A DNA stretch of 32,000 nt, taken from positions 123,890-155,889 of the forward strand of contig JBCCHT010000001.1 of assembly GCA_039028615.1 (NCBI GenBank), given 5' to 3'. The notes under the pieces were generated by a model. It had not been told where the DNA came from and did no database searches. It saw nothing but the letters and a program-made list of their open reading frames with translations. Of the stretch, positions 2,124 through 22,831 are shown in pieces (the first letter of the stretch is position 1; the number at the start of each line of letters is the position of its first letter). The DNA is from Myxococcota bacterium (GTDB taxonomy: Bacteria; Myxococcota_A; Polyangia; Nannocystales; Nannocystaceae). The position numbers and the translations under genes were made by a program.

Positions 2124-2759
2124 GTGGCAAAGGGCCGCAACGACGTGGCGCTGGTGGAGGCCGCGCTGCAAGGGCAGCCGGGTGCACGCCGTCGTCTCGC
2201 CAACCGCCTGCTCGATGCGATTCACCGCGAGATCGCGATCTCGGTGCTGCGCTGGGCCGGCCGTAGCGGCCACGACCATCACCAAGAGATCAACGATCTG
2301 GTCCAGGAAGTCCTCGTGGCACTGTTCGAGCACGACGCCCGAGAGCTCCGCCGTTGGGACCCGAAGCGGGGCCGAAGCCTGGAGAGCTTCGTCGCGTTGG
2401 TCGCCCGTCGCCGCGCCTCGAGGGTGCTCGGCCGCGGTTACCGAGACCCGGTCGATCTACCGAGCGAGGAGCCCCCGGAGACTCCGGACGATGCGTCGCT
2501 GGTCGATCGCCTCGAGCAACGCGCGGAGCTGGGGGCCGTGCTGCGCATGCTCTACGCCCAGATGAACCCGCGGGACATGGAGCTGTTCGACCTGCTCTTC
2601 GTACAGGGACTCGACCCGGCGGAGGTCGCCTCGCGCCTCGACATCTCGCGGGGCGCGGTCAATGCCTGGTCGTACCGCACGCGCAAGCTCGCCCGGACGC
2701 TCGTGCGCGCACGCCTCGATTCCGACTCGAACACGAACGTGGAGGCCCGCCATGGGTGA
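2124..2759 (+). CDS. ECF-family RNA polymerase sigma factor
   Basis: Region 2 motif DLVQEVLVALFEH...RWDPKRGRSLESFVALVARRRASRVL. Region 4 HTH MNPRDMELFDLLFVQGLDPAEVASRLDISRGAVNAWSYRTRKLAR. The ORF is open from 1929, but the first ~65 aa are Arg/Ser-rich junk, so GTG 2124 or GTG 2145 is the likely start. Stop is TGA at 2757-2759. Confidence 0.85.
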   Translation: MAKGRNDVALVEAALQGQPGARRRLANRLLDAIHREIAISVLRWAGRSGHDHHQEINDLVQEVLVALFEHDARELRRWDPKRGRSLESFVALVARRRASRVLGRGYRDPVDLPSEEPPETPDDASLVDRLEQRAELGAVLRMLYAQMNPRDMELFDLLFVQGLDPAEVASRLDISRGAVNAWSYRTRKLARTLVRARLDSDSNTNVEARHG

Positions 2760-3474
2760 CGAGCTACTCCGTGCCCTGGGTGCACACGAGCGCGACGATG
2801 GGCCCGCCGAGGCGCTCGAGGACCTCGCGCCCCTGAGCGACGACGATCGGACCTCGATCCTCGAGGGGGCGTTCGGCCAGCTCGAAGACGAGCCCAGTGT
2901 CGACGAAGCACCCGCGGCCGCGCCGATTTCCTTGGAGCAGCGCCGTCGACCCAACATCGCCATCGCGATCGTGGGCGCGGTGCTGGCCGTCGCGGCTGCC
3001 GTCGTGCTGTGGCGCGCGAGCGGCCCGAGCACACCGACGGCGGCGCCACTGGTCGCCGCCCTACCCTCGTACTCCATTCGTCAGCTGCACGCGGGCGCCA
3101 AGGAGCTCCGCGCCGAGGCCGACCGCGTCCCCAGCACGATCACCACGACGGCCGACGGACCCCTCGACCTGGTCATCGCCCCGCAGGCCCCCGCGTCGGG
3201 GGAGGTCGCCATCGCCATCATCGCGCGTCAGCCGAGCGGCGAGGTGGTCGCGCAACGACTCACGAACGGCGTACAGGTCTCCGAGGACGGCTCGATTCGA
3301 TTGAAGGGTCGATGGAGCGATTTCATCACGCTGTCCGCCGGCTCCTGGTCGGTGCAGCTGGTGGTGGGACGACCCATGTCATTGCCCACCGATCCCGAGG
3401 CGCTCGCCCGAGCCGCCCCCAAAGAGGACTGGCGAACCATGGCCGTGCAGGTGAACATCGTGTCCACCCGCTGA
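2752..3474 (+). CDS. single-pass membrane protein, positional candidate anti-sigma factor
   Basis: ATG 2752 overlaps the sigma stop (ATGGGTGA, 2752-2759), suggesting translational coupling. It has an acidic ~70 aa N-terminus, one TM helix (IAIAIVGAVLAVAAAVVLW) and a ~150 aa extracytoplasmic domain. There is no HxxxCxxC zinc anti-sigma motif, so the function is inferred from position only. Confidence 0.6.
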   Translation: MGDELLRALGAHERDDGPAEALEDLAPLSDDDRTSILEGAFGQLEDEPSVDEAPAAAPISLEQRRRPNIAIAIVGAVLAVAAAVVLWRASGPSTPTAAPLVAALPSYSIRQLHAGAKELRAEADRVPSTITTTADGPLDLVIAPQAPASGEVAIAIIARQPSGEVVAQRLTNGVQVSEDGSIRLKGRWSDFITLSAGSWSVQLVVGRPMSLPTDPEALARAAPKEDWRTMAVQVNIVSTR

Positions 3475-3475
3475 T

Positions 3476-6208
3476 GTGAAGCTCCTCGGTCTGATCCTCG
3501 CCGCGCTGCTGGTCGGAAGCTGCTCGCCCCCCAACGACCCCCCGGCGACAGCGAATCGCCCGAGCGCGGCTGCGACCGAGCTGCCCGAGATCGTGGTGGG
3601 AGGCTGCGACGACCGCGAGCAGGACCTGTGCTGGATCACCAGCCAGCTGACGGGCGGGCAGCTGACGATCTGGGTCGATGTCGAAGCCTCCGCCACGCTG
3701 CAGGTGCGCATCGACGGGACCCCCTCCAGCGTCGAGCCCTGGCCGGTCGACGGTGGTCAACGACTGCAGGTCAAGGTTCCACTGGGTGCCGCGCGGCTCG
3801 AGCTCCAGTCGGTGCAGCCCGCGTGGGCGGAGCCCTTTCGGCTGCCGCTGCGATGGCGGGCGCCTCCCCTGGCCGCCGCGGTCGCGCGCTACTACATCCG
3901 CCAGAATCGATCGAAAGCGGAGATCGTCGCCCTGCTCGAGCACGCAGCGGAGTCGAGCGAAGGCCTCGATCGCCTGGCCACGCTCCAGCTGCTGCGACGC
4001 GTTCACGGTCTGTCGAACACCCCACAGTCGCTAGCGCGAGCAGAGGAGATCGTGCGGCTCGCCGAGGCGCTAGAGCAGGAGGTCGCGCTCGCCGACATCG
4101 CGGCGGTGCAGGCGTTTCGCCACATCACGGCCAAGGACCTACCCAAGGCTCGCCCCTGGCTCGAGCGACTCGAGCGGCTCGCCCCCGACGTCCCCAAGGC
4201 CAGAGCCTGGGCGGCGTACTACCGCGGTATGGCGGCCACTGCCGAGGGGGACCTCACCGCCGCGGTGCGCTCGATGGCGCAGTCGCAGCGGGCTGCGAAG
4301 CGGCTCGGGCAAGTCGCCGACGTCAGCTCGGCGCTGGAGCAGCACGCGGTCTTACTGGGTGAACTCGGCCAGACCTCCGAGGCGCTGGCGCTGATTCGGG
4401 AAGGCCTCGACTCGCTCGACGACCCCCGCTTGCTGTGCAAGACGCAAGCCCGCGCCCTGGGCAACCTGGGCTGGGCCCAGCTGCGGCTCGTGCAAAACGA
4501 CCTCGACGACGACGTGCCGTGGTCGGCCCTCGAGCGCGCGTTGGCGTTGGTCGAAGGCCCTTGTCCGAACACCTTCGAGCAGGCCAATCAGCGACTCAAC
4601 CTCACGCTCGCCGGCTTGGTGAGCGCCGAGTACGGTCGAGCTCAGGGGTACATCGACGACCTGCGCGCAGACGGAGTCCCCGCGGGCCTCGAGCCGTGGA
4701 CGGCCGAGTTCGAAGCCCGGCTCGACCGCGTGGCGGGGCGCTGGGACCGGATGCCGCCGCTCGTGCTCGAGCCCGAGCGCAGCGGCGAGGTGGGTCTCGA
4801 CTGGAGCGTGACGCTGCGACGGGCCCAGGCGCTGGCGGAGCTCGGGCTCCACGAGGCCGCAGCCGATGCTTTCATGCAGACCGAGGCGATGCTCGACGAC
4901 GCTCTGATCACGATCGGAGCAGACATCGGCAAGGAGATGTTCCTCGCCTCGCGCTCGGTCAGCGCCCGCGGCCTGGTGCAGCAGCTGCTCGTGCTCGGGC
5001 GCGCGAAGGATGCCGCCTGTCGAGCGCGGCTGGCTCGCGGACGAGCGCTGCGTACGATCGACCGCTCGACTCGCATCGCGGGCCTGAACCCGAAGCAGCG
5101 CCGCGAGTGGAACACCAAGGCCTTGGACTTTCTCGCCAAGCGCCGCCGCTTGCAGCAAGAGGGCGAAGGCGACTGGAAATTCTCGGACACGAAGGTCCAG
5201 CGCCGAAAGACTCGCCGCGCGCAGCGGGACGCGGAGGCCCTGGCCGAGTTCGACGACGCCCTGCGCCAGCTGCTCACCGACAAGGCCCCCAAAGACTGTA
5301 CGGCCCTCGCTCCCGCGACCGACGGGGAGGCGCTGCTGCTGGTCTCGGACACCGAACACGGCACGCTCGTGATGTTGGTCGATGCGCAGGGCGTCGCCAG
5401 CGTGCAGGCCCCGAGGGCCGATCCCCAGACCCCGGAGCACTGGGCCGAGGCCGCCCTGAGCGACCTGAGCGAGCGCCTCTCCCGGGCCACCCGTATCCGT
5501 CTCGCCATCGACGGCAGCGCTCGCGCCCTCCCCTGGCCGCGCCTGCTGGTCGGCGAAGGCACCCTGCTCGACCTCGCTCCGCTCGTGCACACGCTCGACC
5601 TGCCGCTTCGGGATTCGGCGCCCGCGCGAGCCTCCCAGGCGCTGGTCATCGGGGACCCCCTGCAGGACCTGCCCAACGCGCGACGGGAGGCCGTGGCGGC
5701 ACACGAGTCCCTCGCGGACGCCCCCTGGTCGCCACGACGCAACCTGCTGCTCGGGACCGAAGCCAGCCGCTCGACCATCACCGAGGCCCTCGGTACCGCG
5801 ACCGTGGTGCACTACGCGGGGCATGGTGTGCATCGGGGGAGCGACGGCTGGAACGCCGCCCTGCTGCTGGCCGATGGCGAGCTGACCGTGGCCGACCTCC
5901 TCGCACTGCCCGCGGTGCCTTCCACCGTGATCCTGGCCGGCTGCGACACGGGGACGGGCAACGACCAGGCGCTGGCGGGCGGGCTGAACATCGGGCGGGC
6001 GTTCGTGCTGGCCGGCGCCGAGCAAGTCTTGGTCGCCGACGGCCCGATCCACGACGAACTCGCCCAAGCGATCGGCGAAGCGGTGGCCGCCCGGCTCGCG
6101 ACCCAAGCCCGCCCCGACCTGGCTAAAGCGCTCCAGACCGTGCAGCGCCAGCTCGCCCAGCAGCGGCCGGACGAGCCGTGGTGGCGGCTGCACGTCTTGG
6201 TGCCCTGA
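3476..6208 (+). CDS. TPR-like repeat / CHAT (caspase-like) domain lipoprotein
   Basis: GTG 3476 lies 1 nt after the upstream stop. Signal peptide plus lipobox: KLLGLILAALLVGSC. The long helical-repeat middle is TPR-like. The C-terminal CHAT signature has a His/Cys dyad context: ALVIGDP...VVHYAGHGVH...STVILAGCDTGTG. Confidence 0.9.
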   Translation: MKLLGLILAALLVGSCSPPNDPPATANRPSAAATELPEIVVGGCDDREQDLCWITSQLTGGQLTIWVDVEASATLQVRIDGTPSSVEPWPVDGGQRLQVKVPLGAARLELQSVQPAWAEPFRLPLRWRAPPLAAAVARYYIRQNRSKAEIVALLEHAAESSEGLDRLATLQLLRRVHGLSNTPQSLARAEEIVRLAEALEQEVALADIAAVQAFRHITAKDLPKARPWLERLERLAPDVPKARAWAAYYRGMAATAEGDLTAAVRSMAQSQRAAKRLGQVADVSSALEQHAVLLGELGQTSEALALIREGLDSLDDPRLLCKTQARALGNLGWAQLRLVQNDLDDDVPWSALERALALVEGPCPNTFEQANQRLNLTLAGLVSAEYGRAQGYIDDLRADGVPAGLEPWTAEFEARLDRVAGRWDRMPPLVLEPERSGEVGLDWSVTLRRAQALAELGLHEAAADAFMQTEAMLDDALITIGADIGKEMFLASRSVSARGLVQQLLVLGRAKDAACRARLARGRALRTIDRSTRIAGLNPKQRREWNTKALDFLAKRRRLQQEGEGDWKFSDTKVQRRKTRRAQRDAEALAEFDDALRQLLTDKAPKDCTALAPATDGEALLLVSDTEHGTLVMLVDAQGVASVQAPRADPQTPEHWAEAALSDLSERLSRATRIRLAIDGSARALPWPRLLVGEGTLLDLAPLVHTLDLPLRDSAPARASQALVIGDPLQDLPNARREAVAAHESLADAPWSPRRNLLLGTEASRSTITEALGTATVVHYAGHGVHRGSDGWNAALLLADGELTVADLLALPAVPSTVILAGCDTGTGNDQALAGGLNIGRAFVLAGAEQVLVADGPIHDELAQAIGEAVAARLATQARPDLAKALQTVQRQLAQQRPDEPWWRLHVLVP

Positions 6209-6210
6209 GC

Positions 6211-8208
6211 TCAGCGCCAGACCAGCTCGTCTTCGATCGGGCGATAGAAGCCGTCGAAGGAGATCGAGATCCGAGCCGAGTCGAAGCTCGTGGGCATGCG
6301 CTGCGAGTCGAGCTGCAAGCCAGTGATCGAGTCGTGGTCGAGCGGCACGGCACCGAAGTCGAACTGCGTCTCCTCGCCCTGGTCGCTCAGGATCACCACC
6401 ACCCGATCCACGACGCGTCCGTCGTGGGTGTCGTCGAGCGAGGCCTGCACCTTGTCGCCCTGGAGCGTGCAGTTGTTGCAACCGGGGGACGAGGGCTGCG
6501 GTGCCACGTACGCGATGTCGTCGAGCGGCGTGGTGGTCACGCAGGCATCCGACCCCATCGCGCTCACCACGTCGACGTCCTCACCACACACGGTCTGGCA
6601 GGTATCCACCTGGTCGAAGGCCACCGTCGTCGAGGTCGACGGCGCCAGATCGACCAGCTCGATCGCGTCCTTCAGGTCGACGGGGCTGGGCGGCAGGCAC
6701 TCGAGCGCGAGGTCGCAGTTTGCATGCTGCTCACAGGCCAGCTTCAGCGCGCCGCAGGCGTTGATCTTGCGCGTGGGAGCGATGGCCGCCCCACCCAGGC
6801 CGAAGTCTGCGTCGCTACCGAGCGCGATGCCTCCTTCGTAAACGACCTGCATGACCTCGTCCGGCGTCAGCGAAGGATTGTAGGACCACACCAGCGCCGC
6901 GGTACCGCTGGCGACCGCGGCCGCGACCGAGGTCCCGGTGAGCCCCGCGGTCATCACGTTCTCACCCGCCACCGCGTGGGTCGCCGTGGCCATCAACCGC
7001 GGCTGCGCGTCCAGGCGCGAGCCGGGCATCAAGGAGTCGTCGTGGGCGAGGCCACCGACGGCGTGCACGAGCGGCCGATAGCCCGCGCCAGGCGGATCGA
7101 TGTTCACGCTGAACTCGCTGCAGCGGCTGACCCCGGGCGCGTTGAGCTGCTCCCAGGTGGCGGGCGCGAGCGGTGTCTCGTGGCACATGAGCCCCTCGTT
7201 GCCCGCCGCCGCGATGATGAGCGCCCCGTGACACGACGCGTACTGCAACGCCCGGCGCACCGCCGCCGCAGCCGCGGGCATGCCCGGCCCGTCACCACCG
7301 AACTCCGCCGCTTCCCAACCCACGCTGAGATTGATGATGAGCGGTGGCTTGGGCTCCATCCCGTCGTAGGTCTGCTCCCACTCGCGCACCGACTCGATCA
7401 CCGCCGCGGCCAGGTCCCCCTGCGACCCCACGTAGCCGCCACGCTGAGCGTCGATGCCCGTCGGGATCCGCGGCAAGCCGAGCACCCGATGCACCCGATC
7501 ACGGCAGCTGCCCCCCTGCGAACCTCCCGGTGGGACCGGACATGCGATGTCGGTGATGATGCGTGCCATCGCCTCGCCATGCTCGGTGCGAGGGTCGTTG
7601 GGCTCCGAGCGAGGCATGGTGTCGATGACCGCCACCGCGACCGGAGTGCGGAGCGACTCGGTGGGCTCGCCGCTCGAGTCGTTCAGTTGATGAGCCTCGA
7701 CCCGACCGACCTGATCGCGGAACACGTCGCGCAACGCCGGGCCGATGATCGCGTCGGTCGCCGAGTCGCGCTGCGGGTTCACGACCTCGCAGTCTGGGCC
7801 CATGGAACGAACCAGAGGCTGGACCGACAGGTCGTCGAGGTCGCCCGCGGTGGGTTCCGACGTCGGTCCGATCCAGCGATAGCGACACCAATGCCCCTCC
7901 GTGTCATTGACCGGAGTGCCATTGACCGCCAACCACGGCGAGCCGGCCTCGAACAACGAGGTCGCTTCCCAATCGGTATAGACGGGGCAATGATCCTCTG
8001 GTTGCACGTGGACGATTTGTCGCGAATTCGGGCACGCAGCGGCCACTAGCGTGTCGAGTGGCGAGGGCGTGTCCTTGTCTTCTTCCGCCCCCCGCGGGGT
8101 GGGTTCGGGTAGGGCGGAGATGTCGTCGAACTCCGTTTGCAGGCAAGCGGTCGAGCAAAGAGCGAAGAGAACCAAAGTTCCGAGATGGGCGGACGTTTTT
8201 TCAATCAT
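6211..8208 (-). CDS. secreted subtilisin-like serine peptidase (family S8) with a Cys-rich C-terminal extension
   Basis: Catalytic triad contexts are VAVAVIDT (Asp), RTEHGEAMARI (His) and LTGTSVAAAVASGTAALVWS (Ser), with the oxyanion Asn in IINLSVGW. The ORF is open to 8322, but ATG 8208 gives a proper signal peptide (MIEKTSAHLGTLVLFALCSTAC). Confidence 0.9.
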   Translation of the reverse strand: MIEKTSAHLGTLVLFALCSTACLQTEFDDISALPEPTPRGAEEDKDTPSPLDTLVAAACPNSRQIVHVQPEDHCPVYTDWEATSLFEAGSPWLAVNGTPVNDTEGHWCRYRWIGPTSEPTAGDLDDLSVQPLVRSMGPDCEVVNPQRDSATDAIIGPALRDVFRDQVGRVEAHQLNDSSGEPTESLRTPVAVAVIDTMPRSEPNDPRTEHGEAMARIITDIACPVPPGGSQGGSCRDRVHRVLGLPRIPTGIDAQRGGYVGSQGDLAAAVIESVREWEQTYDGMEPKPPLIINLSVGWEAAEFGGDGPGMPAAAAAVRRALQYASCHGALIIAAAGNEGLMCHETPLAPATWEQLNAPGVSRCSEFSVNIDPPGAGYRPLVHAVGGLAHDDSLMPGSRLDAQPRLMATATHAVAGENVMTAGLTGTSVAAAVASGTAALVWSYNPSLTPDEVMQVVYEGGIALGSDADFGLGGAAIAPTRKINACGALKLACEQHANCDLALECLPPSPVDLKDAIELVDLAPSTSTTVAFDQVDTCQTVCGEDVDVVSAMGSDACVTTTPLDDIAYVAPQPSSPGCNNCTLQGDKVQASLDDTHDGRVVDRVVVILSDQGEETQFDFGAVPLDHDSITGLQLDSQRMPTSFDSARISISFDGFYRPIEDELVWR

Positions 8209-8552
8209 TTCCAAGCTCGCGTGCCCCGACGGCAACGGTGTCGGGGCTCGCGGTCTCATTGTTCCACGAGGCATCACCGATGACATGAATCCGTCGATTC
8301 TCTGCAGAAAATTCACCGTCATCGACGGGCTCTCGTCTCATGCCTCGTGCATGCGAAGATCGCGCTGAAGTCGAGTCGGTGGTTACCGTCGTTCGCTCAC
8401 GATTCGTCGACGTCGCCACCCCGCGGGAAACTCCATCGCGCGAAAAAGTTTCGATCGTCGACTCGTCATCGCGATCGATGGCCACGGCAATGAGCCCGAC
8501 AGCGACGGAGAGGGTCACCGACCCGAAGCCCCCGCCGCAGCAGAGCATTGTC

Positions 8553-9404
8553 ATGAACATCAGGAAACTTCATCTCGCTTCGACGATCACCGCCCTCACC
8601 CTCGGCCTCGGCGCGCTGGCCTGTGATCCCGAAGGCTCCCCCGACGACTCCGACGCACGCGACGGGCTGCTCTTCGGCCTGCACGACAGCGACGTCGTCG
8701 CGCTGCACGATCGCTACCTGCCCGACGAAGACCTCGGCCTGACCTTCGACCGACTCACCGCGCCCTTCGACTGCTCGCTCTACGGGGACCTGTGTGCGCA
8801 GGTCGGCGAGGACCAGGCCATCGAGATCACCGAGGAGCTGGTCGAGCTGGGCCTCGACGGCGCCTCGCCCGAGCAGATCGATGCGTTCCTCGATCAGCGT
8901 ACCGACGAGGCGATGGACCTCCGAGCCGAGAGCGAAGAGCTCTCCGACGACTTCACGTTTCGCAGCTCCACCGGGTGGTTCAGCCGCACCGTGGGCAACG
9001 TTCGCATGCTGACCCGCAACGGCATCACCACACCGGTCATCGGCTCACGACAGGCGTGGACGGAGGCCAAGACCCAGCGACGCAATGGGCTCGGCACCTG
9101 GTTCAACCGCAAGGCGACCGAGATCTGCGTGAACGCGGGCACCAACACCCAGGTGCAGACCGTGTGTGGCGGGGGGATTCCGTGCGCCGACACGACCCTG
9201 GAGTCCTTCAACCCCTCCAATACCTGCGTGGCCAACAAGGTCTCCCACAAGAGCACGACCTTCCATGCCCGCAACAACGGCGCGGAGCCGGGGGGCGGCT
9301 TCTCGCTCACCTACAAGCTGACCGCGCGCGGCTGCTCCGACGCGGAGATCAACGGGGTCAACCTCTCGCTCGCCTGCGCCCCCGCTCACCTTCGCTTCTA
9401 TTAG
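8553..9404 (+). CDS. hypothetical lipoprotein, Cys-rich C-terminal domain
   Basis: ATG 8553 gives the signal/lipobox MNIRKLHLASTITALTLGLGALAC. The mature protein has an acidic helical N-half and a C-half with 8 Cys (FDCSLYGDLC, EICVN, TVCGGGIPC, NTCV, RGCS, LAC). No family recognised. Confidence 0.7.
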   Translation: MNIRKLHLASTITALTLGLGALACDPEGSPDDSDARDGLLFGLHDSDVVALHDRYLPDEDLGLTFDRLTAPFDCSLYGDLCAQVGEDQAIEITEELVELGLDGASPEQIDAFLDQRTDEAMDLRAESEELSDDFTFRSSTGWFSRTVGNVRMLTRNGITTPVIGSRQAWTEAKTQRRNGLGTWFNRKATEICVNAGTNTQVQTVCGGGIPCADTTLESFNPSNTCVANKVSHKSTTFHARNNGAEPGGGFSLTYKLTARGCSDAEINGVNLSLACAPAHLRFY

Positions 9405-12355: not shown

Positions 12356-13150
12356 GTGGAGGTCCAGCTCGCCCTGCTGGGGGCCGTCCCCGCGCTCATC
12401 GCCATGGCGATCGTCGATCGCCTGGACGCCAAGCGCCCGGAGCCGCGCGCCACCCTGCGCCGGGTCGCGCTGCTCGGAGCGTTCTCTGCCCTCCCCGTCA
12501 TCCTCGTCAGCGAGGTTCTCAAGCTCGTCGGTCCGACCAGCGGCTACGTCTCCGTGCTGTACACCTCGCTCGTCATCGCGGCCCTGCCCGAGGAAGCCGC
12601 CAAGGTCGGCAGCATGTACCTCATGGCCTGGCGCCGCCCCGAGTTCGACGAGCGCATGGACGGCATCGTCTACGGTGCGCGCGCGGGCCTCGGCTTCGCG
12701 CTGGTCGAGAACGTCGCCTACCTCCTGCTGCTGCCCCACGGCATCGGGGAGTACCTCGCCATGTTCCTCGGCCGAGCCGTCCTCGCCGTCCCCGGCCACG
12801 CCATCTGGGGAGGCGTCGCCGGGTACTTCGCCGCCCGCCGCCGCTTCGACGGTCGCGGCCCCGGCTGGTGGGGCGGCCTACTCATCGCCGTGCTCATGCA
12901 CGGCCTCTACGACATCTGGATCTTCGGCGCCCCCTTTGCCATCCGCGATGGCCAGACCTGGCTGCAGACCGAGCTGTTCGGCGTCCCCGTGGGCTTTTAC
13001 TGCGGCCCCGTCGTCATGATCATGGCCGGCGCCCTGTTCCTACGCGCGCTGGCCCGCAAAGCCGTCGCCGACGACGACGCCGACCATGCCCTGATGCGCA
13101 CTTGGTCGCCGCCCGAGCGCTACGACCCCAATCACCCCCGCGGGTACTGA
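12356..13150 (+). CDS. PrsW-family intramembrane metalloprotease
   Basis: GTG 12356. Multi-pass membrane protein with PrsW signatures: ALPEEAAKVG (EExxK), GLGFALVENVAY (FAxxEN), VPGHAIWGG and LMHGLYD. Confidence 0.85.
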   Translation: MEVQLALLGAVPALIAMAIVDRLDAKRPEPRATLRRVALLGAFSALPVILVSEVLKLVGPTSGYVSVLYTSLVIAALPEEAAKVGSMYLMAWRRPEFDERMDGIVYGARAGLGFALVENVAYLLLLPHGIGEYLAMFLGRAVLAVPGHAIWGGVAGYFAARRRFDGRGPGWWGGLLIAVLMHGLYDIWIFGAPFAIRDGQTWLQTELFGVPVGFYCGPVVMIMAGALFLRALARKAVADDDADHALMRTWSPPERYDPNHPRGY

Positions 13151-13154: not shown

Positions 13155-13811
13155 TCAGCTCGGGCGGTCGCCTTCGACGAGGCGGTCGCGGAGGGACTGG
13201 GCCCAGTTCTCGATGTCGCCAGCCGTGGTCTCGCGGAGGGCGGCGGGGAACTCTTCGGCCTTCAGGATCCACTCGCGCACCATCTTGCGGGCGCGGCTGA
13301 GGCGGCTCTTGACGGTACCGGGGGGTACGCCGATGACGACGGCGATGTCGTCGATGCGCATCTCTTCCCAGTAGTGCAGCTCGACGGCGATCTGGAGGTC
13401 GATGGGGATGTGCCGAAGCGCGGTGAGGACCAGCTTCTGCTCGTCCTTGCCCGCGACGGCGAGGGAGGGCGAGCCCATGACGTCGGCGATGGAGGTCTCG
13501 AGCTGATCGACCTTCTTGCCCTTGCGCGCATACTTGCGCAGGTGCATGAGCAGCTGGGTCCGCGCGATGGCCAGCAGGTAGGTCTTGAAGCTCGAGTCGC
13601 CGCGAAAGCGGTGGGCGCTCTCGGAGCAGGCGAGCATGGTCTGCTGCACCAGGTCCTCGGCGCCGTGGCTCACCTTGCTGCGAAAGAACCGAAAGAGCGT
13701 CCGAAAATGACGGCGGAGTAGGCGGGAGCCGGCGGTGTTGTCCCCCGCCCGCCACGCCTCCAGAAGCTCGAGATCTTCGTCCTTGGCCACGGTTGTACGG
13801 CACCGTAGCAA
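13155..13811 (-). CDS. ECF-family sigma factor, kinase-linked type with a C-terminal tail (sigma A)
   Basis: Region 2 AEDLVQQTMLACSESAHRFRGDSSFKTYLLAIAR. Region 4 AVELHYWEEMRIDDIAVVIGVPPGTVKSRLSRARKMV. A further ~36 aa tail follows. Start is TTG 13811 or GTG 13790. It lies 36 nt downstream of the kinase gene on the same strand. Confidence 0.9.
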   Translation of the reverse strand: MLRCRTTVAKDEDLELLEAWRAGDNTAGSRLLRRHFRTLFRFFRSKVSHGAEDLVQQTMLACSESAHRFRGDSSFKTYLLAIARTQLLMHLRKYARKGKKVDQLETSIADVMGSPSLAVAGKDEQKLVLTALRHIPIDLQIAVELHYWEEMRIDDIAVVIGVPPGTVKSRLSRARKMVREWILKAEEFPAALRETTAGDIENWAQSLRDRLVEGDRPS

Positions 13812-13847: not shown

Positions 13848-16800
13848 TCAGCCCGGCCCGGGGCGGTGATCGAGGCACAGCAGGCTGCGATCATGGCCGG
13901 CGACGAAGACCTCGAGCTGGCCGTCACCGTCGACATCGGCCACCGCGGGCGAGGCTTCGACCTCCTCGCGCCCGGTGCTGAAGCGCCACACCAGCGCTCC
14001 GGTGCGAGCGTCGACCACATGCACCGAGCCATCGTCGAAGCCGGCGAGAAACTCGAGCCCGCCGTCCCCCTCGAGGTCGGCGAGCACGGGCGAACCCGAG
14101 GCGCCCGGCTGGAGCCCGTCGCCGTCGGCGAACCGGTACTGCCACCGCAGGCGACCGTCGCCCGAAAGCCCGACCAGCCCGTTGTGGCCCGTGCTCGCGA
14201 ACACCTCGGGCACCCCGTCGCCGTCCACGTCGGCGGCGAGAGGCCGGGCCCGACGCGACGCCATCCCCGGCCAGCGCGCGACTTCGTGGCCATCGACTCC
14301 GGACAGCACCACCAAGGGGTGATCGTCCTGGTGGGGGGAGACCAGGATCTCGAGGTGCCCGTCGCCATCGAGATCGGCGGAGGTCGGCTCGAAATTGAGC
14401 CGGCCCCCGGTCTGCGTCTCCCAGCGCCGGACCCCGTCGTGGGTGAGCGCCACGACGTGACCGTCGAGCAACGCCACGACGATCTCGTTGGCGCCGTCTC
14501 CATCGAGGTCACGCACATGGGCCGCGCCGAACGAGCCGAAGCGTCCGAGTTCATGGGTCCACCGCAGCTCGAGTGACTCCGCATCGAGCACGTGCACCAT
14601 CCCCGGGTCCTCCCAGGTGACCATGATGACCTCGTGGTGTCCGTCCCCGTCGAGGTCGGCGATGGTCGGGCTCGCATAGGCCGAGGTCGTCCGATACTCG
14701 CCGGTCAAGCTCGCGTCCCGACCGTGGAAGCGGGAGAGCCCGCGACCGACGACATAGAGCTGAGGACCGTCGGAGCCGGACAGCATCACGGGTGGCCGGA
14801 TCACGTTGGGCGTGTCGTCGGCCAGGCTCTCCGCCTCCACCGATCCGGTACGGGCATCGAGTAGCTCGATCCGGGTGCGGTCCCCTAGCGGCCCGACCAC
14901 AGCGACCTCGAGCCGACCGTCTTCGTCGAAGTCCCCCGTCAACGGCGTCGCCCGGATCGAGTCGAGCGGTCGACGCTCCCAGCGAACCTTGGGTCCCACC
15001 ATCACCGCGGGTCCTCGCGCCCGGAGCAGCAAGTCTTCGAAACCGTCGTGGTTGGCGTCTCGGCTCGCTTCAATGGACCTCGCCGGCACCCCGATGGGCA
15101 CGGTGCCCATCGACTTCAAGCTCGGATCGAAGACTCGCACGAGGCCGTCTTCGGTGCCGACCATCAGGTCATCCCGAGCGTCACCATCCCAGTCGGTGAC
15201 CTCCAGCGCCGAGACGACTCGCGAGGGGAGCGTCACCCGAGCGGACTCTCGCCCGGTGGCCGCATCCAGCAACATGAGCGTCTCTTCGCGCCGATGCGCC
15301 ACCGCGGGACGGGCCAGGCTCCCCAACAGCTGCGCATGGGTCCCCACTCTCGCGGGCTCCTTCCACAGCGCCTTGCCGCTGCGCCCGGAGATCAGGTTGA
15401 GCCCCGGCTCGCCTTCGAGCCCCGACACCAGCACATCGACCGTGCCGTCACCGTCGACATCCCCCAGGTCCCGATCTCGCTTGAGCGCGACGTCACTGCC
15501 GATCTTCGCCTGCCACTGCACCTCGCCGGAGCGCCCCGACAACGCGACGAGGCTCGCGCCCTCGCCATCCGTCCTCAGCAACAAGTCCTGCCCCGGTTGG
15601 TCGTCGAGCTCCAGCGCGGCCAGCCGGGAGATGCGACTGTCTCGATTGCGCTGCGTCTGCACGATCCACTCTGGATCGACGCCGCCATCGGGGGTCCGTG
15701 CCGCGACCGCCAGCGGCCGAGTCCACCGCGTCGACCCATCGTCGGTGTCGAAACTCGTGACATGGTCGACCGACACGACCGCCACCGCGGGCGAAGACTC
15801 CGGGTCGGACGTCACGACGAGCACGACGGGGTCTTCAGGCAAGACCTGGGACCAATGGCGCGCGCCCGTTTGGCCATCGAAACGCGCGAGCTGCCGGGGC
15901 GCCAGGCCTCCCACCACCAGATCCTGGCCCCCTTCCGCGTCGACGCACGCCAGCTCGAACGCAAAGGGCCGCTCGACCTCGGCATCGACCGGCACGTCCA
16001 CCGTCCAGCGCGGCTTCGGCCGACGCGAGCTCGTGGTGGAATCGAACGCACGAAACTCGAGCACCTCTTCCCGAGGTTTCGCGGTCACGACATCGGGCAC
16101 ACCGTCGCCCTCGAGATCACAGAGCCGAAAGTAGGGGCTCGGGCCCAGCTCAATCCGCCAGTTTTCTTCATCGGACCACGGGTCGTACGCGGTCAAGACG
16201 GTGAAGCGCCGCTGAAGCAGGTCGTCGAGTCCGTCGCCGTTCACATCGCCCAGCCACCATGAACCCAAAAACGCCCCGGTCGCCGGCCGTGACCACGAAA
16301 GCGCCTTGCGCAGGGCGACGAAGCCCCGCTGGGTCTGCCCCGCCGTCGCGGTCCATTGCAACCGCTGGTCGACATACCCCTCGTGCCGCAGCAACAGCTC
16401 GTGCGGCCCGGTGTCGATCTTCAGTCCTCGTAGGCGTGATCCGTAGTCGGTGCCGTCGATGAACACGTGGCCGCCGCTGGGCTCGAGCTCCAGCTCGAAG
16501 GTGCCTTGCTGGTGATCGAGCTCGACCGCGACCTCGTGCATCCCACCGCGACGCACGTCGACCACCGTCTCCGCCGTGTCGTAGTCGGGCGCGCTCACCC
16601 GAACCCGATGCAGACCCGCCGCGACCTCGCCCTGCGCTCCCGGCAGCGGCTGTTCGTCGATCTCCACCTGCACCCCGGGCACGGGCTGCCCCTGCGCACT
16701 GGCGACCACCCGGACCTGCCCCGGCCGCGTGCCCACGTACCCGGCGTAGGCGATCGCAGCCACGCCCAACCCCACCGCGGCCCGGCTGCTCCAGCGCTTC

Positions 16801-17912
16801 ACTCGGCGGACCGGATCCGCCCGCAGCGCTTGCAGCAACGCCGCCATATTGGCGAAGCGTTGGCGCGGATCGGGCTCCAGCCCTCGCAACACGACGCGGT
16901 GGACCCACGCGGGAACCCGCACCTTCTCCGGCGGCGTACGGATCTGGCCCCGCGTCTTGCTGACGAAGAGCGTCTCGATGCTCCGTCCCTCGAAGGCGTG
17001 CACGCCGTACAGCGCTCGATAGAGCGAGGCACAAAACGCGAACTGATCCGCCTCTTGGTCGGCCGGATCGCCGCGGTGCTGCTCGGGAGCCATGTACGCG
17101 GGCGTCCCCAAGATCACGCCCGTACGGGTGAGCTTGTCCAGCGCGACCGACTTGACGGAGGGCTCCGGCTCGCTTCCTTCGTCGACGGGCATCGGCGTTC
17201 CCTCCCCCGTCCGCGACCCGGTGATCGAGCCGCCGTAGGTCAGCGCCAGACCGAAGTCGACGACCTTGACCCGACCGTCGTCACCGAGCAGCACGTTGGC
17301 GGGCTTGAAGTCGCGGTGGATGAGGCCCGCCCGGTGAGCCGCGTCGAGCCCCTCACCCGCCTCGAGAAAGACCTCGACCACCTCCCGCCACGACCGCGGA
17401 CCACGGCCGAGCCACGACGCCAGGTCGCTGCCCTCGACCAGCTCCATGACGATGAACACGCCGGTCTCGTCCGAGTCCTCGGGCGGAGCCATGGGCTCGA
17501 GAGGCCCGGACAGCTCGCTCGCCGAATAGGTCCCCACGTCGTAGACCCCGATGACGTTGGCGTGCGAAAGCCGGGCGATCGACTGGGCCTCGCGCACGAA
17601 ACGAGCGCGTGCCCGCGCCACCGCGTCGACGTCCTTGCTGCCCGAGCGCAGCACCTTGACCGCCACCCGACGCGCCAGCTCCGGGTCGTAGCCGTCGTAG
17701 ACCACCCCGGTGCCACCCGAGCCCAAGGGGCGCAGCAGCAGGTAGCGCGAAATTTTCAGGGGCTCGCGTGCGCGCGCGAACATGTTGCGCTCGATTCGAC
17801 CGAGCGCGCGCTCCTCTTCGACCGCATCCCAGCCCAGCGCCCCGTCGATGGCGTGGCCCAGCGTATCGACTGTCTGGATGGTCCCGTCGGGATCCGGCGT
17901 CGGCGTCTCCAA
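13848..17912 (-). CDS. membrane Ser/Thr protein kinase with PEGA-like domains and ~14 FG-GAP/VCBS repeats
   Basis: Hanks kinase motifs: LGSGGTGVVY, VAVKVL, HRDFKPANVLL, DFGLA, GTPAYMAPE. TM helix AAVGLGVAAIAYAGYVG. Two PEGA-like modules. About 14 DxDGDG-type repeats (GDVNGDGLDDLL, ADLDGDGHHEVIMV, ADVDGDGQLEVFV and others). Confidence 0.95.
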   Translation of the reverse strand: METPTPDPDGTIQTVDTLGHAIDGALGWDAVEEERALGRIERNMFARAREPLKISRYLLLRPLGSGGTGVVYDGYDPELARRVAVKVLRSGSKDVDAVARARARFVREAQSIARLSHANVIGVYDVGTYSASELSGPLEPMAPPEDSDETGVFIVMELVEGSDLASWLGRGPRSWREVVEVFLEAGEGLDAAHRAGLIHRDFKPANVLLGDDGRVKVVDFGLALTYGGSITGSRTGEGTPMPVDEGSEPEPSVKSVALDKLTRTGVILGTPAYMAPEQHRGDPADQEADQFAFCASLYRALYGVHAFEGRSIETLFVSKTRGQIRTPPEKVRVPAWVHRVVLRGLEPDPRQRFANMAALLQALRADPVRRVKRWSSRAAVGLGVAAIAYAGYVGTRPGQVRVVASAQGQPVPGVQVEIDEQPLPGAQGEVAAGLHRVRVSAPDYDTAETVVDVRRGGMHEVAVELDHQQGTFELELEPSGGHVFIDGTDYGSRLRGLKIDTGPHELLLRHEGYVDQRLQWTATAGQTQRGFVALRKALSWSRPATGAFLGSWWLGDVNGDGLDDLLQRRFTVLTAYDPWSDEENWRIELGPSPYFRLCDLEGDGVPDVVTAKPREEVLEFRAFDSTTSSRRPKPRWTVDVPVDAEVERPFAFELACVDAEGGQDLVVGGLAPRQLARFDGQTGARHWSQVLPEDPVVLVVTSDPESSPAVAVVSVDHVTSFDTDDGSTRWTRPLAVAARTPDGGVDPEWIVQTQRNRDSRISRLAALELDDQPGQDLLLRTDGEGASLVALSGRSGEVQWQAKIGSDVALKRDRDLGDVDGDGTVDVLVSGLEGEPGLNLISGRSGKALWKEPARVGTHAQLLGSLARPAVAHRREETLMLLDAATGRESARVTLPSRVVSALEVTDWDGDARDDLMVGTEDGLVRVFDPSLKSMGTVPIGVPARSIEASRDANHDGFEDLLLRARGPAVMVGPKVRWERRPLDSIRATPLTGDFDEDGRLEVAVVGPLGDRTRIELLDARTGSVEAESLADDTPNVIRPPVMLSGSDGPQLYVVGRGLSRFHGRDASLTGEYRTTSAYASPTIADLDGDGHHEVIMVTWEDPGMVHVLDAESLELRWTHELGRFGSFGAAHVRDLDGDGANEIVVALLDGHVVALTHDGVRRWETQTGGRLNFEPTSADLDGDGHLEILVSPHQDDHPLVVLSGVDGHEVARWPGMASRRARPLAADVDGDGVPEVFASTGHNGLVGLSGDGRLRWQYRFADGDGLQPGASGSPVLADLEGDGGLEFLAGFDDGSVHVVDARTGALVWRFSTGREEVEASPAVADVDGDGQLEVFVAGHDRSLLCLDHRPGPG

Positions 17913-19490: not shown

Positions 19491-19970
19491 ATGCCGCTCT
19501 ACGCCGTCGCGATCGCGCTGACCATCGTCGCCAACATCGGCTACCACCTGTGCCAAAAGGGTATCCGCCCCGAGGCCAGCCCCATCGCCACCGTGATGGC
19601 CACGTATATGGTCGCGCTCGCTCTGTCGGCCCTGATGTGGCCATGGCTCGGGCACTCCGATGGCCTCGTCGCCTCGTTCCGTCGCCTGGGCCCGGCCAGC
19701 TATGCGCTGGGTGGCTGCGTGGTCCTGCTCGAGATCGGCTTCCTCCTCGCCTACCGCAGCGGCTGGGACCTCGGCGTCGCGGCGCTGTACTCCAACGCCG
19801 CGACCGCGATCGTGCTGCTTCCGATCGGCTTGCTCGCCTTCTCCGAGGGCATCGACGGCCGCAAGGCGCTGGGCTTGGTGTTCGCGTTCGTGGGCCTGGT
19901 GTTGCTCAGCGGGGGCGGCGGGGAAAAGCCGAAGGATAGCGACGCACCCGCGGCCGAATCTTCGAGCTAG
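19491..19970 (+). CDS. small EamA/DMT-like membrane transporter (single-domain, ~5 TM)
   Basis: ATG 19491 starts directly in a TM helix (MPLYAVAIALTIVANIGYHL). There are four more hydrophobic helices and a hydrophilic tail. The in-frame upstream extension to 19134 is basic junk. Confidence 0.75.
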   Translation: MPLYAVAIALTIVANIGYHLCQKGIRPEASPIATVMATYMVALALSALMWPWLGHSDGLVASFRRLGPASYALGGCVVLLEIGFLLAYRSGWDLGVAALYSNAATAIVLLPIGLLAFSEGIDGRKALGLVFAFVGLVLLSGGGGEKPKDSDAPAAESSS

Positions 19971-22831
19971 CCCCGCGCCTGACGGTGCGCCGCGACGGTA
20001 TTCATGCGGCGGACCTCGCCCGCGTCCCAGGCCGAGATCGCGGCGCGGCCGAACGTCGACTCGCTCCCACGCAAGTACTCGAGCGCGGGCTCGGCCCGGA
20101 CCCGGGCGTCGTCGTGGCGACCGACGGCCCGTAGCGCATGCGCGTGCGTGAGTTCGAGAACCCGGCGCACGAGCTCGCCGTGGCGCTGGGAGTCGGCGAA
20201 TGTCGATGCGTCCGCCAGCACCTCCAGCGCCTGCTCGGGCTCCCCCTTCGCCAGCCAGACCCGGGCCTCGAAGTCCAAAAAGAGCATGACCATGAAGTGC
20301 TCGGGCGCGTAGCTGCGCTGGATCTCGGTGGCCGCCGACGCGCGGTCGAGGGCGTCGTCCAACCGCCCCTCGATCAGCGCGAGCTCTCCCTCGAACCGGG
20401 TGACCGCGGCCAGATCGGGCGTTCCGTCGGGGTGAAGCGCTTGCATGATCCGACGCGCATCGGCCAGGTTGTCGCGCGCTCCGTCGAGGTTGCCCGTGTA
20501 CAGATCGAGCTGGGCGAGCAGCGCCTTGGCATTGCCCACGGGCACGCTCACCATTCCCCGAGAGTCCCGCCACGCTGCGATTGCACGCCGCACCAAGCCC
20601 TGCGCGGTCTCGAAGTCACCGTCCCCTTTTTCGAGGGTGGCGAGGTTGTAGTAGCGCGGCGCCAGCTCGGGGTGCGACTCGCCGAGGATCTCGGCCGACA
20701 GCGCGATGCTCTGGCGCAGCAGCGGCTTGGCGCGCCCTCGCTCGCCGTCGTTGATGTAGGTGACGGCCAAGTCGTTGAGGATGACCGCGAGGCGCACGCG
20801 GGACCGAGTGTCGTCGCCCGAGAGCCGCTCGCGGGCCTGCTCGAGAGCAGCGAGCGCTTCGTCGTAGCGACCTTGTCGGTGGAAGATGCCCGCCCGAGTC
20901 TGGAGAACCGAGACCTCGAGCTCGATATCGTCGGGAGCCCGGCCCAGGGCTCCGGTTGCGACCCGAGCCCATACTTCACCCGCTTCGTAGCGATCGAGAT
21001 GGTACCCGAAGACATCGGCGAGCGCGTTGGCGACCGTCCCGGCGAGCGCCACGTCATCGACCAACGTGGCCCGTTCGTAGGCATCGTGCAGGTGCCGTTG
21101 GGCGTCCTCGAAGCGGCCAAGTCGAACCTCGGCCCGCGCCAGCTCGTAGGCAACCTCGGCCACGAACGCATCGGGAGCCCCCGACGCGTCGACGAGCAGC
21201 TGCTCCAGCCGAACGCGCGCCCGCTCGTAGTTCCCGATCTCGATCGCGGTCGTGGCCCGCGCCAGCGCCTCCGTCAACGCTTCGTTCGCCGCTGGCGGGA
21301 CCTCGAGTTCGGTGCCCGTACCGTAGTGCATGCACTCGACCAACGGAGGCAACGAAACGGCCGCCTTGGTTGCCGACTCCACCGTGGCCCGGTCGGCGTT
21401 CTCCAGCGTATCCACCAACGACTCGAGGCTGGCGAGCCCTCGCTGCAAGCAGGCGACGCGTCGGTGTTCCTCGCGGTCGTCGATCTCTTCGCGAACCCGG
21501 CACAACAACGAGGCCCCCTGCTCCCAGCGCGTAGCGTAGTCGCTGAGCACCGCCCCCGTTCGCGAAGCGGCCGAATGCGCGAAGCCCAGTCCGCTGTCGT
21601 CGAAGGCGCGGGTCATCGTTTCGAGGCGACCCGAGTTCCACACCGACTGGACTTGCTGGGCTCGGATCTCGCAGGGTTCCTCCGTCTGGGACCCGGCCAT
21701 CAGCGCCACCGCCAGTCCCATCGCTCCGAAGCCGCTGGGGATCCAGCGCTGCCATCGTCGGCTCGACTTGGGCTCGAACGCGGCCACCACCTCTGCCATC
21801 GACTCCGGCCGCGCGTGAGGATCGGGGGCAACGCCGCGCGCGAGCACGCGACGCAGCCGGCTGGGGGCCGAGCGCAGCAGCCCGGCGATTTCGGCCTCGA
21901 AGCGAGCGGAGCCTCGCCGGTCGTTGTCGCGAGTGAAGACGCGCTCGCCCGAGATGATCTCGATGGCAGTCACACAAAACGCATGGATGTCGCTGCGAAC
22001 CGACGCGGGACTCCCCTCGAGCTGCTCGGGCGCCATATACGAGGGCGTGCCCGCGACCGTGGGCGCCTGGGAGTTCGAGCAATCGTCCATCGGTGCCGCC
22101 AGCCCGAAGTCGGCCAAGCGAGCCTGGTTTCCACGGTCGACGAGGATGTTGCCCGGCTTGATGTCGCCGTGGATGATCCCGACCTCGTGGGCGGCTTCGA
22201 GCCCCAACGCCGCCCCATGCAACAGCTGCAGCTTGGTCGGCAGCGGCGCGGCGCGATGGCGGGCCATCCAGTCGTGCAGGTTGGCGCCGTCCACCTGCTC
22301 CATGACGATGAAGACCTCGTCGTCGTGCTCGCCGATCTCGAACACCCGGACGATGTTGGGGTGGGAGATCCGAGCCAAGGTGCGCGCCTCGGACTGCAGC
22401 GCCGCCGCCCCGCCCCGGATGAGCGTGCTCCGACAACCCACCGCAGAGCCGATGGAGAGCACTTTGAGCGCCACCGTCCGCCCGAGCTTGGGGTCCTTGG
22501 CCTCGTAGACCGCTCCCACCCCGCCCTGCCCGAGCTTCCGCTCGAGCACGAAGCGCCCCACCGTCGTACGCTCGCCGTCGCCGAGACCGAGTCGGGCGCT
22601 GATCCGTTGGGACAGCAGGCGATCGGCGCGGTCCTGCTGGGGCGGGCGACCGACGACCAGCAGCTGGGACAAGGGCAGGCCGAAGAGCGCGCTTTCCTGC
22701 GCTCGTTCGCTGCCCTGGAAGGTATCGAGCTGGATCGGCGCGGACAGTTCCCGCGTGGACGCCTCGTCGTCGCCATCGCGCAGCGACAAGGGGGCGAAGG
22801 GCGTCGCCGCCCTCGGCGTACAACTCGACAC
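19967..22831 (-). CDS. membrane Ser/Thr protein kinase (non-RD, HGD) with a TPR-repeat sensor region
   Basis: GTG 22831. Kinase motifs: LGQGGVGAVY, VALKVL, IIHGDIKPGNILV (Gly replaces the usual Arg of HRD), DFGLA, GTPSYMAPE. TM helix GFGAMGLAVALMAG. The rest is ~550 aa of TPR-like helical repeats. Confidence 0.9.
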   Translation of the reverse strand: MSSCTPRAATPFAPLSLRDGDDEASTRELSAPIQLDTFQGSERAQESALFGLPLSQLLVVGRPPQQDRADRLLSQRISARLGLGDGERTTVGRFVLERKLGQGGVGAVYEAKDPKLGRTVALKVLSIGSAVGCRSTLIRGGAAALQSEARTLARISHPNIVRVFEIGEHDDEVFIVMEQVDGANLHDWMARHRAAPLPTKLQLLHGAALGLEAAHEVGIIHGDIKPGNILVDRGNQARLADFGLAAPMDDCSNSQAPTVAGTPSYMAPEQLEGSPASVRSDIHAFCVTAIEIISGERVFTRDNDRRGSARFEAEIAGLLRSAPSRLRRVLARGVAPDPHARPESMAEVVAAFEPKSSRRWQRWIPSGFGAMGLAVALMAGSQTEEPCEIRAQQVQSVWNSGRLETMTRAFDDSGLGFAHSAASRTGAVLSDYATRWEQGASLLCRVREEIDDREEHRRVACLQRGLASLESLVDTLENADRATVESATKAAVSLPPLVECMHYGTGTELEVPPAANEALTEALARATTAIEIGNYERARVRLEQLLVDASGAPDAFVAEVAYELARAEVRLGRFEDAQRHLHDAYERATLVDDVALAGTVANALADVFGYHLDRYEAGEVWARVATGALGRAPDDIELEVSVLQTRAGIFHRQGRYDEALAALEQARERLSGDDTRSRVRLAVILNDLAVTYINDGERGRAKPLLRQSIALSAEILGESHPELAPRYYNLATLEKGDGDFETAQGLVRRAIAAWRDSRGMVSVPVGNAKALLAQLDLYTGNLDGARDNLADARRIMQALHPDGTPDLAAVTRFEGELALIEGRLDDALDRASAATEIQRSYAPEHFMVMLFLDFEARVWLAKGEPEQALEVLADASTFADSQRHGELVRRVLELTHAHALRAVGRHDDARVRAEPALEYLRGSESTFGRAAISAWDAGEVRRMNTVAAHRQARG

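Follow-up and report, generated by a model that had tools for sequence, protein, structure and literature searches.

Four genes at one locus

Four adjacent genes that very probably form one periplasm-facing signaling unit are described here, in a 32,000-nt stretch of DNA (the window; contig JBCCHT010000001.1, positions 123,890 to 155,889; 69% G+C) from a Myxococcota genome assembled from a metagenome. Three of them follow one another head to tail on the plus strand: a gene for a sigma factor of the extracytoplasmic function (ECF) type (2124-2759), a gene for a single-pass membrane protein (2752-3474), and a gene for a lipoprotein that combines tetratricopeptide-like repeats with a caspase-fold CHAT domain (TPR-CHAT; 3476-6208). 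The fourth, encoding an S8 family subtilase (6211-8208, minus strand), converges on this operon. The fused junctions had been pointed out in an earlier, sequence-only reading of the window and can be read directly from the letters: the sigma stop and the membrane protein start overlap by 8 nt (ATGGGTGA at 2752-2759); the membrane protein TGA (3472-3474) is followed by a single T and then by the GTG start of the CHAT gene (3476); and the CHAT and S8 stop codons lie 2 nt apart on opposite strands (TGAGCTCA at 6206-6213, TGA-GC-TCA).

The sigma factor (211 residues, plus strand) matches the Pfam families Sigma70_r2 and r4_2 over 2124-2756 and has profile matches to solved ECF sigma factors; it scores 62.4 bits with TIGR02937, the general ECF superfamily model of NCBIfam (cut-off 42.9), and belongs to the ECF (group IV) branch of the sigma-70 family. 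None of the NCBIfam models for specific sigma subfamilies reaches its cut-off with this protein. Gene callers chose longer starts, but the GTG at 2124 agrees with the N-termini of the homologs. The main text of the paper that reclassified ECF sigma factors does not mention CHAT.

Two proteases predicted to act outside the cytoplasmic membrane

The TPR-CHAT protein (910 residues, 3476-6208, plus strand), 100% identical to one annotated in a metagenome-derived Myxococcota genome, is modeled (pLDDT 81, pTM 0.72) as a β-sandwich (residues 39-128), a superhelix of helical repeats (residues 132-600), and a CHAT caspase-fold domain (residues 618-910). Pfam CHAT (PF12770) matches residues 662-899 at E 1.4e-23, with 84.2 bits against a cut-off of 24, identifying the protein as a CHAT peptidase; the lipobox, the repeats, and the His/Cys pair that had been seen in the letters thus reappear in motifs, Pfam, and model. 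The N-terminal sequence, MKLLGLILAALLVGSC, contains the lipobox LLVGSC (residues 11-16; 3506-3523, plus strand), in which Cys16, the predicted lipidation site, is invariant in seven homologs. Most of 67 CHAT relatives have a signal peptide with a lipobox, and a few have an ordinary signal peptide or a membrane anchor. Two cysteine pairs, C44/C52 and C321/C363, are invariant in the close set of seven homologs and fit with an oxidizing compartment. The catalytic residues, His783 in HYAGHG (residues 779-784; 5810-5827, plus strand) and Cys823 in ILAGCDTG (residues 819-826; 5930-5953, plus strand), are kept in 72 of 72 complete family members.

Which known protein does this one resemble? The best matches of the model in the PDB are the DdvA structures 8RW5 and 8ROT_A (E ~4e-14, 852-963 columns, 16-17% identity), followed by the Csx29 craspase proteases as second-best and then by separases. 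Sequence searches of the PDB with the CHAT protein, with the profile of its seven sequences, and with a fused relative retrieved no CHAT protein; DdvA was reached through fold comparison only.

The S8 protein (665 residues, 6211-8208, minus strand) has a Cys-containing N-terminal domain, a catalytic domain, and a C-terminal domain. It scores 53 bits with Pfam Peptidase_S8 (cut-off 21.8) and carries the Asp-His-Ser triad and the oxyanion Asn of a subtilase; the nearest NCBIfam model is mycosin, with a score below its cut-off. The catalytic residues, Asp196 (7615-7635), His210 (7567-7587), Asn337 (7192-7212), and Ser427 (6922-6942), all within 6922-7635 on the minus strand, are kept in 49 of 49 S8 homologs that belong to related modules. 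The gene had been taken to begin at 8208, and the ATG there is indeed the true start: the longer open reading frame (ORF), starting at 8322, is broken by an indel relative to the closest relative of the locus (L007 in our numbering of related loci). The enzyme had also been called secreted. A signal peptide is present, but the protein is not simply secreted, being itself a predicted lipoprotein: the signal peptide ends in a lipobox region, FALCSTAC (8143-8166, minus strand), whose Cys aligns with the lipobox cysteines of homologs. A lipobox or signal peptide is found in most S8 homologs.

By sequence, then, both proteins have the signal peptide and lipobox Cys of bacterial lipoproteins (LLVGSC in CHAT, CSTAC in S8), and both are predicted to be targeted outside the cytoplasmic membrane. 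For CHAT this placement had been suggested from the lipobox of the window protein, and it gains from the conservation of the lipobox in homologs, from the invariant Cys pairs, and from the gene fusions described below. With their catalytic residues intact, both proteases look active.

A putative anti-sigma factor without zinc ligands

The protein encoded between the sigma factor and TPR-CHAT genes (240 residues, 2752-3474, plus strand) was described in the sequence-only reading as single-pass and devoid of the zinc motif, and so it is: there is one hydrophobic segment, IAIAIVGAVLAVAAAVVLW (residues 69-87; 2956-3012, plus strand), modeled as a helix at residues 71-88, and no H-x3-C-x2-C. An RRR precedes the segment, which implies that the N-terminus is inside. 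Beyond the membrane helix, a Pro/Ala-rich linker of 15 residues (89-103) leads to a predicted periplasmic β-sandwich of immunoglobulin (Ig)-like fold (residues 104-240; 3061-3471, plus strand), which starts at a near-invariant LPxY and is well supported in the AlphaFold model (pLDDT ~90); in this model, built from five sequences, the N-terminal helices are short and poorly supported. A Foldseek search with the model gave generic Ig-fold matches only, and Pfam has no family for the window protein or for 36 relatives. The family is nevertheless large. A second word-indexed search, run with a profile of 37 sequences, yielded no protein beyond the first five, and an exhaustive HMMER search was needed to reveal 2,266 representative clusters at E ≤0.001 (1,351 at E ≤1e-10). 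The conserved columns are P105, Y107, G180, and G186.

Is it an anti-sigma factor? The H-x3-C-x2-C motif is absent from the window protein and from 151 of 152 relatives, and residues 1-68 contain no Cys or His motif that could make up a CHCC zinc-bound three-helix domain. The earlier remark on missing zinc ligands was incomplete, however: judged by alignment, the window protein lacks the whole helix that bears them in relatives. The counterpart of that helix, RWDxLAxGxLSxxE, is present in ~90% of the family, and the homolog at locus L004 keeps the zinc motif itself, as HLAGCEAC (a weak zf-HC2 match). The family profile matches this homolog with 99.3% probability over both the N-terminal helix and the periplasmic domain, and it gives weak, sub-threshold matches to the anti-sigma domains of RslA and ChrR (E 0.13-0.7). 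Because of these matches, the L004 zinc motif, and the overlapping stop and start codons that couple its gene to that of the sigma factor, the membrane protein is a putative anti-sigma factor, in which the N-terminal domain that would bind the sigma factor is reduced and free of zinc.

A module conserved across three groups

The sequence-only reading had staked its proposal on conserved linkage of sigma factor and CHAT genes, and a census bears this out. All six full-length CHAT homologs examined at the outset (26-44% identity) adjoin a sigma gene and a gene for a membrane protein of 240-290 residues; five have an S8 gene nearby, in some cases on the strand of the other genes. When a query built from four sequences was run against one genome per species, it yielded 79 further loci, among them loci in Enhygromyxa salina, Sorangium cellulosum So ce26, Polyangium fumosum, Labilithrix, Haliangium, Byssovorax, and Nannocystaceae, as well as in Thermoanaerobaculia and Holophagales (Acidobacteriota) and in Bradymonadia. 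When profiles of the four proteins were run against the six-frame ORFs of all loci, the four genes were found within 7 kb in 48 of 74 non-duplicate family loci. Among the 49 loci with complete flanks (at least 3.5 kb upstream and at least 3 kb downstream), 44 have the sigma factor and the membrane protein, 41 an S8-like gene (34 of them full length), and 39 all four genes. The subtilase, entertained at first only as a possible extra, does belong to the neighborhood of the switch, but as an integral, conserved member.

The genes stay linked in five or more different orders across Myxococcota, Acidobacteriota, and Bradymonadia. In the commonest (29 loci), sigma factor, membrane protein, CHAT, and S8 genes lie on one strand, with S8 directly 3′ of CHAT; the tail-to-tail arrangement with a convergent S8 gene (eight loci) is specific to the window's clade. 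Six loci have the membrane protein and sigma genes divergent from CHAT and retain only the N-terminal domain of S8. The order CHAT-S8-sigma-membrane protein occurs at two loci in the census, with two more found by a profile search of ORFs, and the order sigma-membrane protein-S8-CHAT at one. An all-against-all comparison of ORFs found no further gene family common to the loci.

The distance matrices of the four proteins correlate (Mantel r 0.68-0.78 over 38 loci, against a maximum of 0.30 in 500 permutations), most strongly for the membrane protein and CHAT. This co-divergence shows inheritance as a unit, which is by itself no proof of contact. Several assembled genomes carry two or three paralogous modules.

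In the six loci that keep the S8 N-terminal domain alone, it forms a lipoprotein of 220-300 residues beside an intact CHAT gene, and this domain therefore has a role independent of catalysis. At L003, S8 is replaced by such an N-terminal-domain-like lipoprotein and a second, Cys-rich lipoprotein (6301-6981, 7061-7849); the other instances are L029, L030, L033, L041, and L054.

Individual loci depart from the pattern in smaller ways. At L007 the CHAT gene (6618-9373) is called as two ORFs (484 and 444 residues), through a frameshift or an assembly error, and two extra genes lie between CHAT and S8. In the cultured Enhygromyxa salina SWB005 (L010, 4932-6950), an insert of ~2 kb that includes an ORF for a 251-residue lipoprotein separates the membrane protein and CHAT genes. 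Bacterial alpha-2-macroglobulin genes adjoin the module at L002 (1-4381) and L005 (768-5339) only; alpha-2-macroglobulin, PrsW, and a dehydrogenase, found near the module in two, one, and four loci, respectively, were rejected as extra partners.

Recurrent fusions of the membrane protein to TPR-CHAT

Recurrent fusion of two genes is a classical indication that their products cooperate, and in at least seven lineages a single polypeptide unites the membrane protein with TPR-CHAT. Three loci (L048, L055 from Haliangium, and L009) encode the fusion as one ORF, with the sigma gene still upstream and the S8 gene downstream; among the best 150 representative clusters of the membrane protein family, five are 1156-1193 residues long, and all five end in a CHAT domain. 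At the three loci the parts run in the order N-terminal domain, membrane helix, Ig-like domain, short linker, β-sandwich, TPR, CHAT. There is no lipobox, and the linkers differ between L048, L055, and L009. The fusions therefore tie the CHAT protein to the membrane protein and place it on the periplasmic side.

Comparison with known systems

To our knowledge, DdvA alone has been characterized among anti-sigma factors with a TPR-CHAT domain. It controls DdvS of Myxococcus xanthus and is built from a cytoplasmic domain with bound zinc, a single membrane helix, and a TPR-CHAT part in the periplasm (PMC11506125, PMC6061681). When the TPR-CHAT domain is truncated, DdvA becomes a substrate of RseP (PMC11506125, PMC6061681), which the domain otherwise blocks sterically (PMC11506125); in the authors' proposal, CHAT acts in trans to cut the linker (PMC11506125, PMC6061681). 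The window shares much with DdvS/DdvA (MXAN_7289/7288; PDB 8ROT, 8RW5, 8RLZ): an ECF sigma factor translationally coupled to a single-pass, here putative, anti-sigma factor, and a predicted periplasmic TPR-CHAT module with a His-Cys dyad encoded alongside. The dyad is similarly laid out, with 40 residues from His to Cys and 87 after Cys in the window CHAT as compared to 45 and 84 in DdvA (published numbering), and the mechanism proposed for DdvA is also the one considered here: regulated intramembrane proteolysis in which CHAT may be the site-1 protease (PMC11506125).

Unlike DdvA, in which all parts form one polypeptide, the TPR-CHAT protein of the window is a separate lipoprotein with its own lipobox, and the anti-sigma candidate has an Ig-like periplasmic domain of its own. 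Also unlike DdvA, the cytoplasmic domain lacks the CHCC zinc site, and an S8 subtilase lipoprotein is added as a conserved member. The juxtamembrane scaffold is helical in DdvA; here it consists of two β-sandwich domains, with one of which the CHAT protein begins. Sequence similarity between the window CHAT and DdvA is too low for detection with hidden Markov models. Finally, only a subset of DdvA-like pairs lie near defense systems (PMC11506125), and beside the window module no island of CBASS (cyclic-oligonucleotide-based anti-phage signaling) or CRISPR genes was found; PADLOC, in which the module is not represented, gave only weak domain-level matches on the window.

The published search for DdvA-like proteins demanded an anti-sigma domain and TPR-CHAT in one polypeptide (PMC11506125), so split modules were not covered by that survey, and our literature searches found no description of the split module or of its S8 partner. 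The split four-gene architecture, the S8 partner, and the breadth of distribution are new; the link between CHAT and ECF sigma control is not. The sequence-only reading held that no caspase-fold protease had been characterized as the trigger of an ECF switch, a statement that was out of date given the work on DdvA (2018, 2024) and on the craspase system Csx29-Csx30-CASP-sigma (2022, PMC10028731). Part of its interpretation is supported: the genes behave as a conserved functional unit, both proteases carry export signals, and CHAT is tied to the membrane protein.

In type III-E craspase, the ECF-like CASP-sigma is inhibited by Csx30, and the inhibition is relieved when Csx29, a TPR-CHAT protease, cleaves Csx30 (PMC10028731); only there has the control of such a sigma factor by a caspase-fold enzyme been demonstrated biochemically (PMC10028731). 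By contrast with the window, that system is cytoplasmic and RNA-guided via Cas7-11, and has no membrane protein, lipoproteins, or S8 partner. Closer in topology are the canonical cascades, RseA/DegS/RseP with RseB and RsiW/PrsW/RasP, in which the anti-sigma factor is likewise single-pass, removal of its periplasmic domain licenses a site-2 protease, and accessory periplasmic partners come from the same operon. Their site-1 enzymes are DegS, PrsW, or Prc, whereas the candidates here are a caspase-fold cysteine protease and a subtilase, both predicted to be lipid-anchored and dedicated to one sigma factor. A trigger composed of two proteases has a precedent in the B. subtilis pro-sigma-K checkpoint, where two extracytoplasmic serine proteases, SpoIVB and CtpB, act on the membrane complex SpoIVFA/BofA/SpoIVFB to release sigma activity, although the sigma class, the protein families, and the compartment logic are unrelated.

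Proposed regulated proteolysis and its rivals

Because of the conserved linkage, the co-divergence, the recurrent fusions, the export signals, the intact active sites, and DdvA as the closest solved structure, we read the locus as a split anti-sigma system of the DdvA/DdvS type to which an S8 protease has been added: a self-contained, four-component transmembrane signaling module with regulated proteolysis as its likely trigger. The chances that this reading is right appear to us evenly balanced. In outline, the sigma factor would be held at the membrane by the short cytoplasmic N-terminus of the small single-pass protein, whose Ig-like domain would work with the TPR-CHAT lipoprotein in the periplasm, the S8 lipoprotein being a third periplasmic partner. 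A signal in the periplasm, probably some protein that the TPR region binds, would activate proteolysis by CHAT, S8, or both. This would remove or expose the periplasmic part of the anti-sigma factor, the obvious place to cut being the 15 residues of linker that follow the membrane helix, and a site-2 protease of the RseP type would then cut within the membrane and release the sigma factor. Regulated proteolysis of the anti-sigma factor is likely the trigger, and that CHAT, the S8 enzyme, or the two together make the site-1 cut in the membrane protein is a proposition whose chances fall at or just short of even. What we infer in this scheme are sigma binding, assembly of the complex, the substrate of each protease and the sequence of the cuts, the part of a site-2 protease, the signal, and the regulon.

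Several observations weigh against it. In DdvA, mutation of the CHAT dyad had no phenotypic effect and autoproteolysis was not observed (PMC11506125), which leaves cleavage by CHAT unproven even in the precedent; moreover, since the juxtamembrane scaffolds differ, the DdvA and window assemblies, compared through models, may differ as well. The N-terminus of the window membrane protein is modeled with low confidence (low pLDDT), and the window's clade is without the RWDxLAxGxLSxxE helix, keeping the first helix and a PL...R..I segment. Catalysis by S8 is not universally required, given the six loci with its N-terminal domain alone; five loci with complete flanks lack a neighboring S8 gene, and a few CHAT genes occur by themselves. 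Neither a conserved target gene nor an ECF-type promoter was found at the loci.

The main rival reverses the direction of signaling: the proteases would be output, not input. The sigma factor and its membrane partner would sense something else and switch on the CHAT and S8 lipoproteins, whose targets would be other proteins of the envelope or of prey; predation, envelope remodeling, and defense are examples of such roles. No gene family beyond the four is conserved at the loci, hence no other nearby regulon is visible, and the genes of the sigma operon are expressed together with the sigma factor; the S8 gene has its own conserved upstream region in the window's clade, and the active sites of both enzymes are kept. 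However, the fusions between the membrane protein and TPR-CHAT point to a regulatory partner rather than a cargo, the TPR-CHAT domain in the DdvA structure belongs to the anti-sigma factor (PMC11506125), and the tight translational coupling points to a stoichiometric complex. We hold this direction to be improbable as an account of the locus; it can coexist with regulated proteolysis through feedback. Could the S8 gene instead be an unrelated neighbor that abuts the operon by coincidence? In the window it is on the opposite strand with its own promoter region, and at L007 two other genes lie between CHAT and S8. Yet an S8 gene of the same family, co-diverging with the rest, is found beside the module at 41 of the 49 loci with complete flanks, in various orders and across three phylum-level groups; the census refutes coincidence, to which we attach a negligible probability.

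How many proteases does the trigger need? Only one may cut the anti-sigma factor, with the other serving as a regulatory partner: TPR-CHAT could be a non-cutting sensor and steric shield, leaving S8 as the true site-1 protease, or CHAT could be the protease and the N-terminal domain of S8 a bound inhibitor or bait, as securin is for separase. Such a division of labor agrees with the wild-type behavior of DdvA dyad mutants and the steric block of RseP by TPR-CHAT (PMC11506125), and with the six loci in which the S8 N-terminal domain alone stands beside an intact CHAT gene. But a CHAT dyad kept in 72 of 72 proteins and an S8 triad kept in 49 of 49 are hard to explain if either activity is dispensable where the full protein occurs, and we give a single cutter little credence. 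At the other extreme, a dedicated periplasmic cascade of two lipid-anchored proteases, CHAT and subtilase, would perform site-1 cleavage of a separate anti-sigma factor in trans. We consider this unlikely, though a serious possibility; if true, CHAT would be the first trans-acting periplasmic caspase-like site-1 protease, which would suggest that DdvA-type systems work likewise.

Whichever enzyme cuts, the split module offers an experimental advantage over DdvA, for which the trigger and the activity of CHAT are unproven partly because sensor, protease, and substrate share one polypeptide. Here, the three are separated into individual proteins that can be expressed, mutated, and mixed, which allows a direct test of whether a caspase-like protease in the periplasm cleaves an anti-sigma factor. 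The conserved subtilase partner is an addition absent from all models of these systems, and the occurrence of the module in three groups, often with more than one copy in a genome, suggests a family of envelope sensors that has diversified. For experiments, cultured strains with the module are at hand: Sorangium cellulosum So ce26 (NZ_CP012673.1, ~10.10-10.12 Mb), Polyangium fumosum DSM 14668, and Enhygromyxa salina SWB005.

Upstream regions

The sigma operon shares its upstream region (1840-2123) with a divergent gene for a 503-residue protein; aligned with L007 and L008, the region shows conserved blocks and large indels, and coding is excluded upstream of ~1929. A promoter had been proposed at 2044-2069. 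It was not confirmed: the site is only partly conserved in L007, and no ECF-type promoter is shared among the sigma upstream regions, where enumeration of gapped dyads over 59 regions gave GC-rich noise. The pattern AAC-N15-18-CGT occurs in 10 of the 59, at scattered positions, and the DdvS promoter pattern GTAA-N16-CGT does not fit; a consensus scan found no promoter and no meaningful terminator. By eye, a TAnnnT hexamer (e.g., TAGAGT or TATAAT) stands 8-25 nt before the sigma start codon at ~25 loci, among them L003, L029, L033, L036, L047, and L065, which hints at housekeeping-type promoters with very short or absent leaders rather than ECF autoregulation.

The intergenic region on the far side of the module (8209-8552), which would hold the promoters of the S8 gene and of a divergent lipoprotein gene, is 87% identical to its counterpart in L007, with frame-breaking indels, whereas the proteins are only ~77% identical; it has no Rfam match and may hold dense regulatory elements. 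It contains three copies of the motif YGTCATCG, one inside the palindrome CCGTCGATGACGG at 8316-8328, and a further copy, TGTCATCG, lies at 1841 in the sigma operon upstream region. In the window's clade, the motif thus recurs 5′ of the sigma operon and again 5′ of the S8 gene (window positions 1841, 8278, 8317, and 8464) and is found in the upstream regions of L001, L007, and L010-L013. It occurs nine times in the window, against 4.7 expected, and is 2.8-fold enriched upstream of sigma genes overall, in mixed orientation and partly palindromic; it may be an operator or a promoter element.

Neighboring genes in the window

The genes around the module encode a GATase, a PITM-like phosphatase, a dehydrogenase, PrsW, ECF sigma factors, and kinases. 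A phage-type integrase gene with Arm DNA-binding and Phage_integrase domains lies at 29104-30462 (plus strand); scans of the whole window for Rfam families and tRNA genes gave no match. PrsW is the site-1 protease of the sigma-W system. A gene for a PrsW-family intramembrane protease (12356-13150, plus strand) and a second ECF sigma gene (13155-13811, minus strand) meet tail to tail, and for this reason the pair may be a further ECF switch linked to a protease, ~4 kb from the first. The second sigma gene is downstream of a gene for a 1354-residue Ser/Thr kinase with PQQ and FG-GAP propellers (13848-17912, minus strand). A further kinase, with TPR repeats, is encoded at 19967-22831 (minus strand), and a third ECF sigma gene (24693-25346, minus strand) is divergent from the gene for a 1137-residue kinase with WD40 repeats (25409-28822, plus strand), bringing the total in the window to three ECF sigma factors and three giant Ser/Thr kinases.

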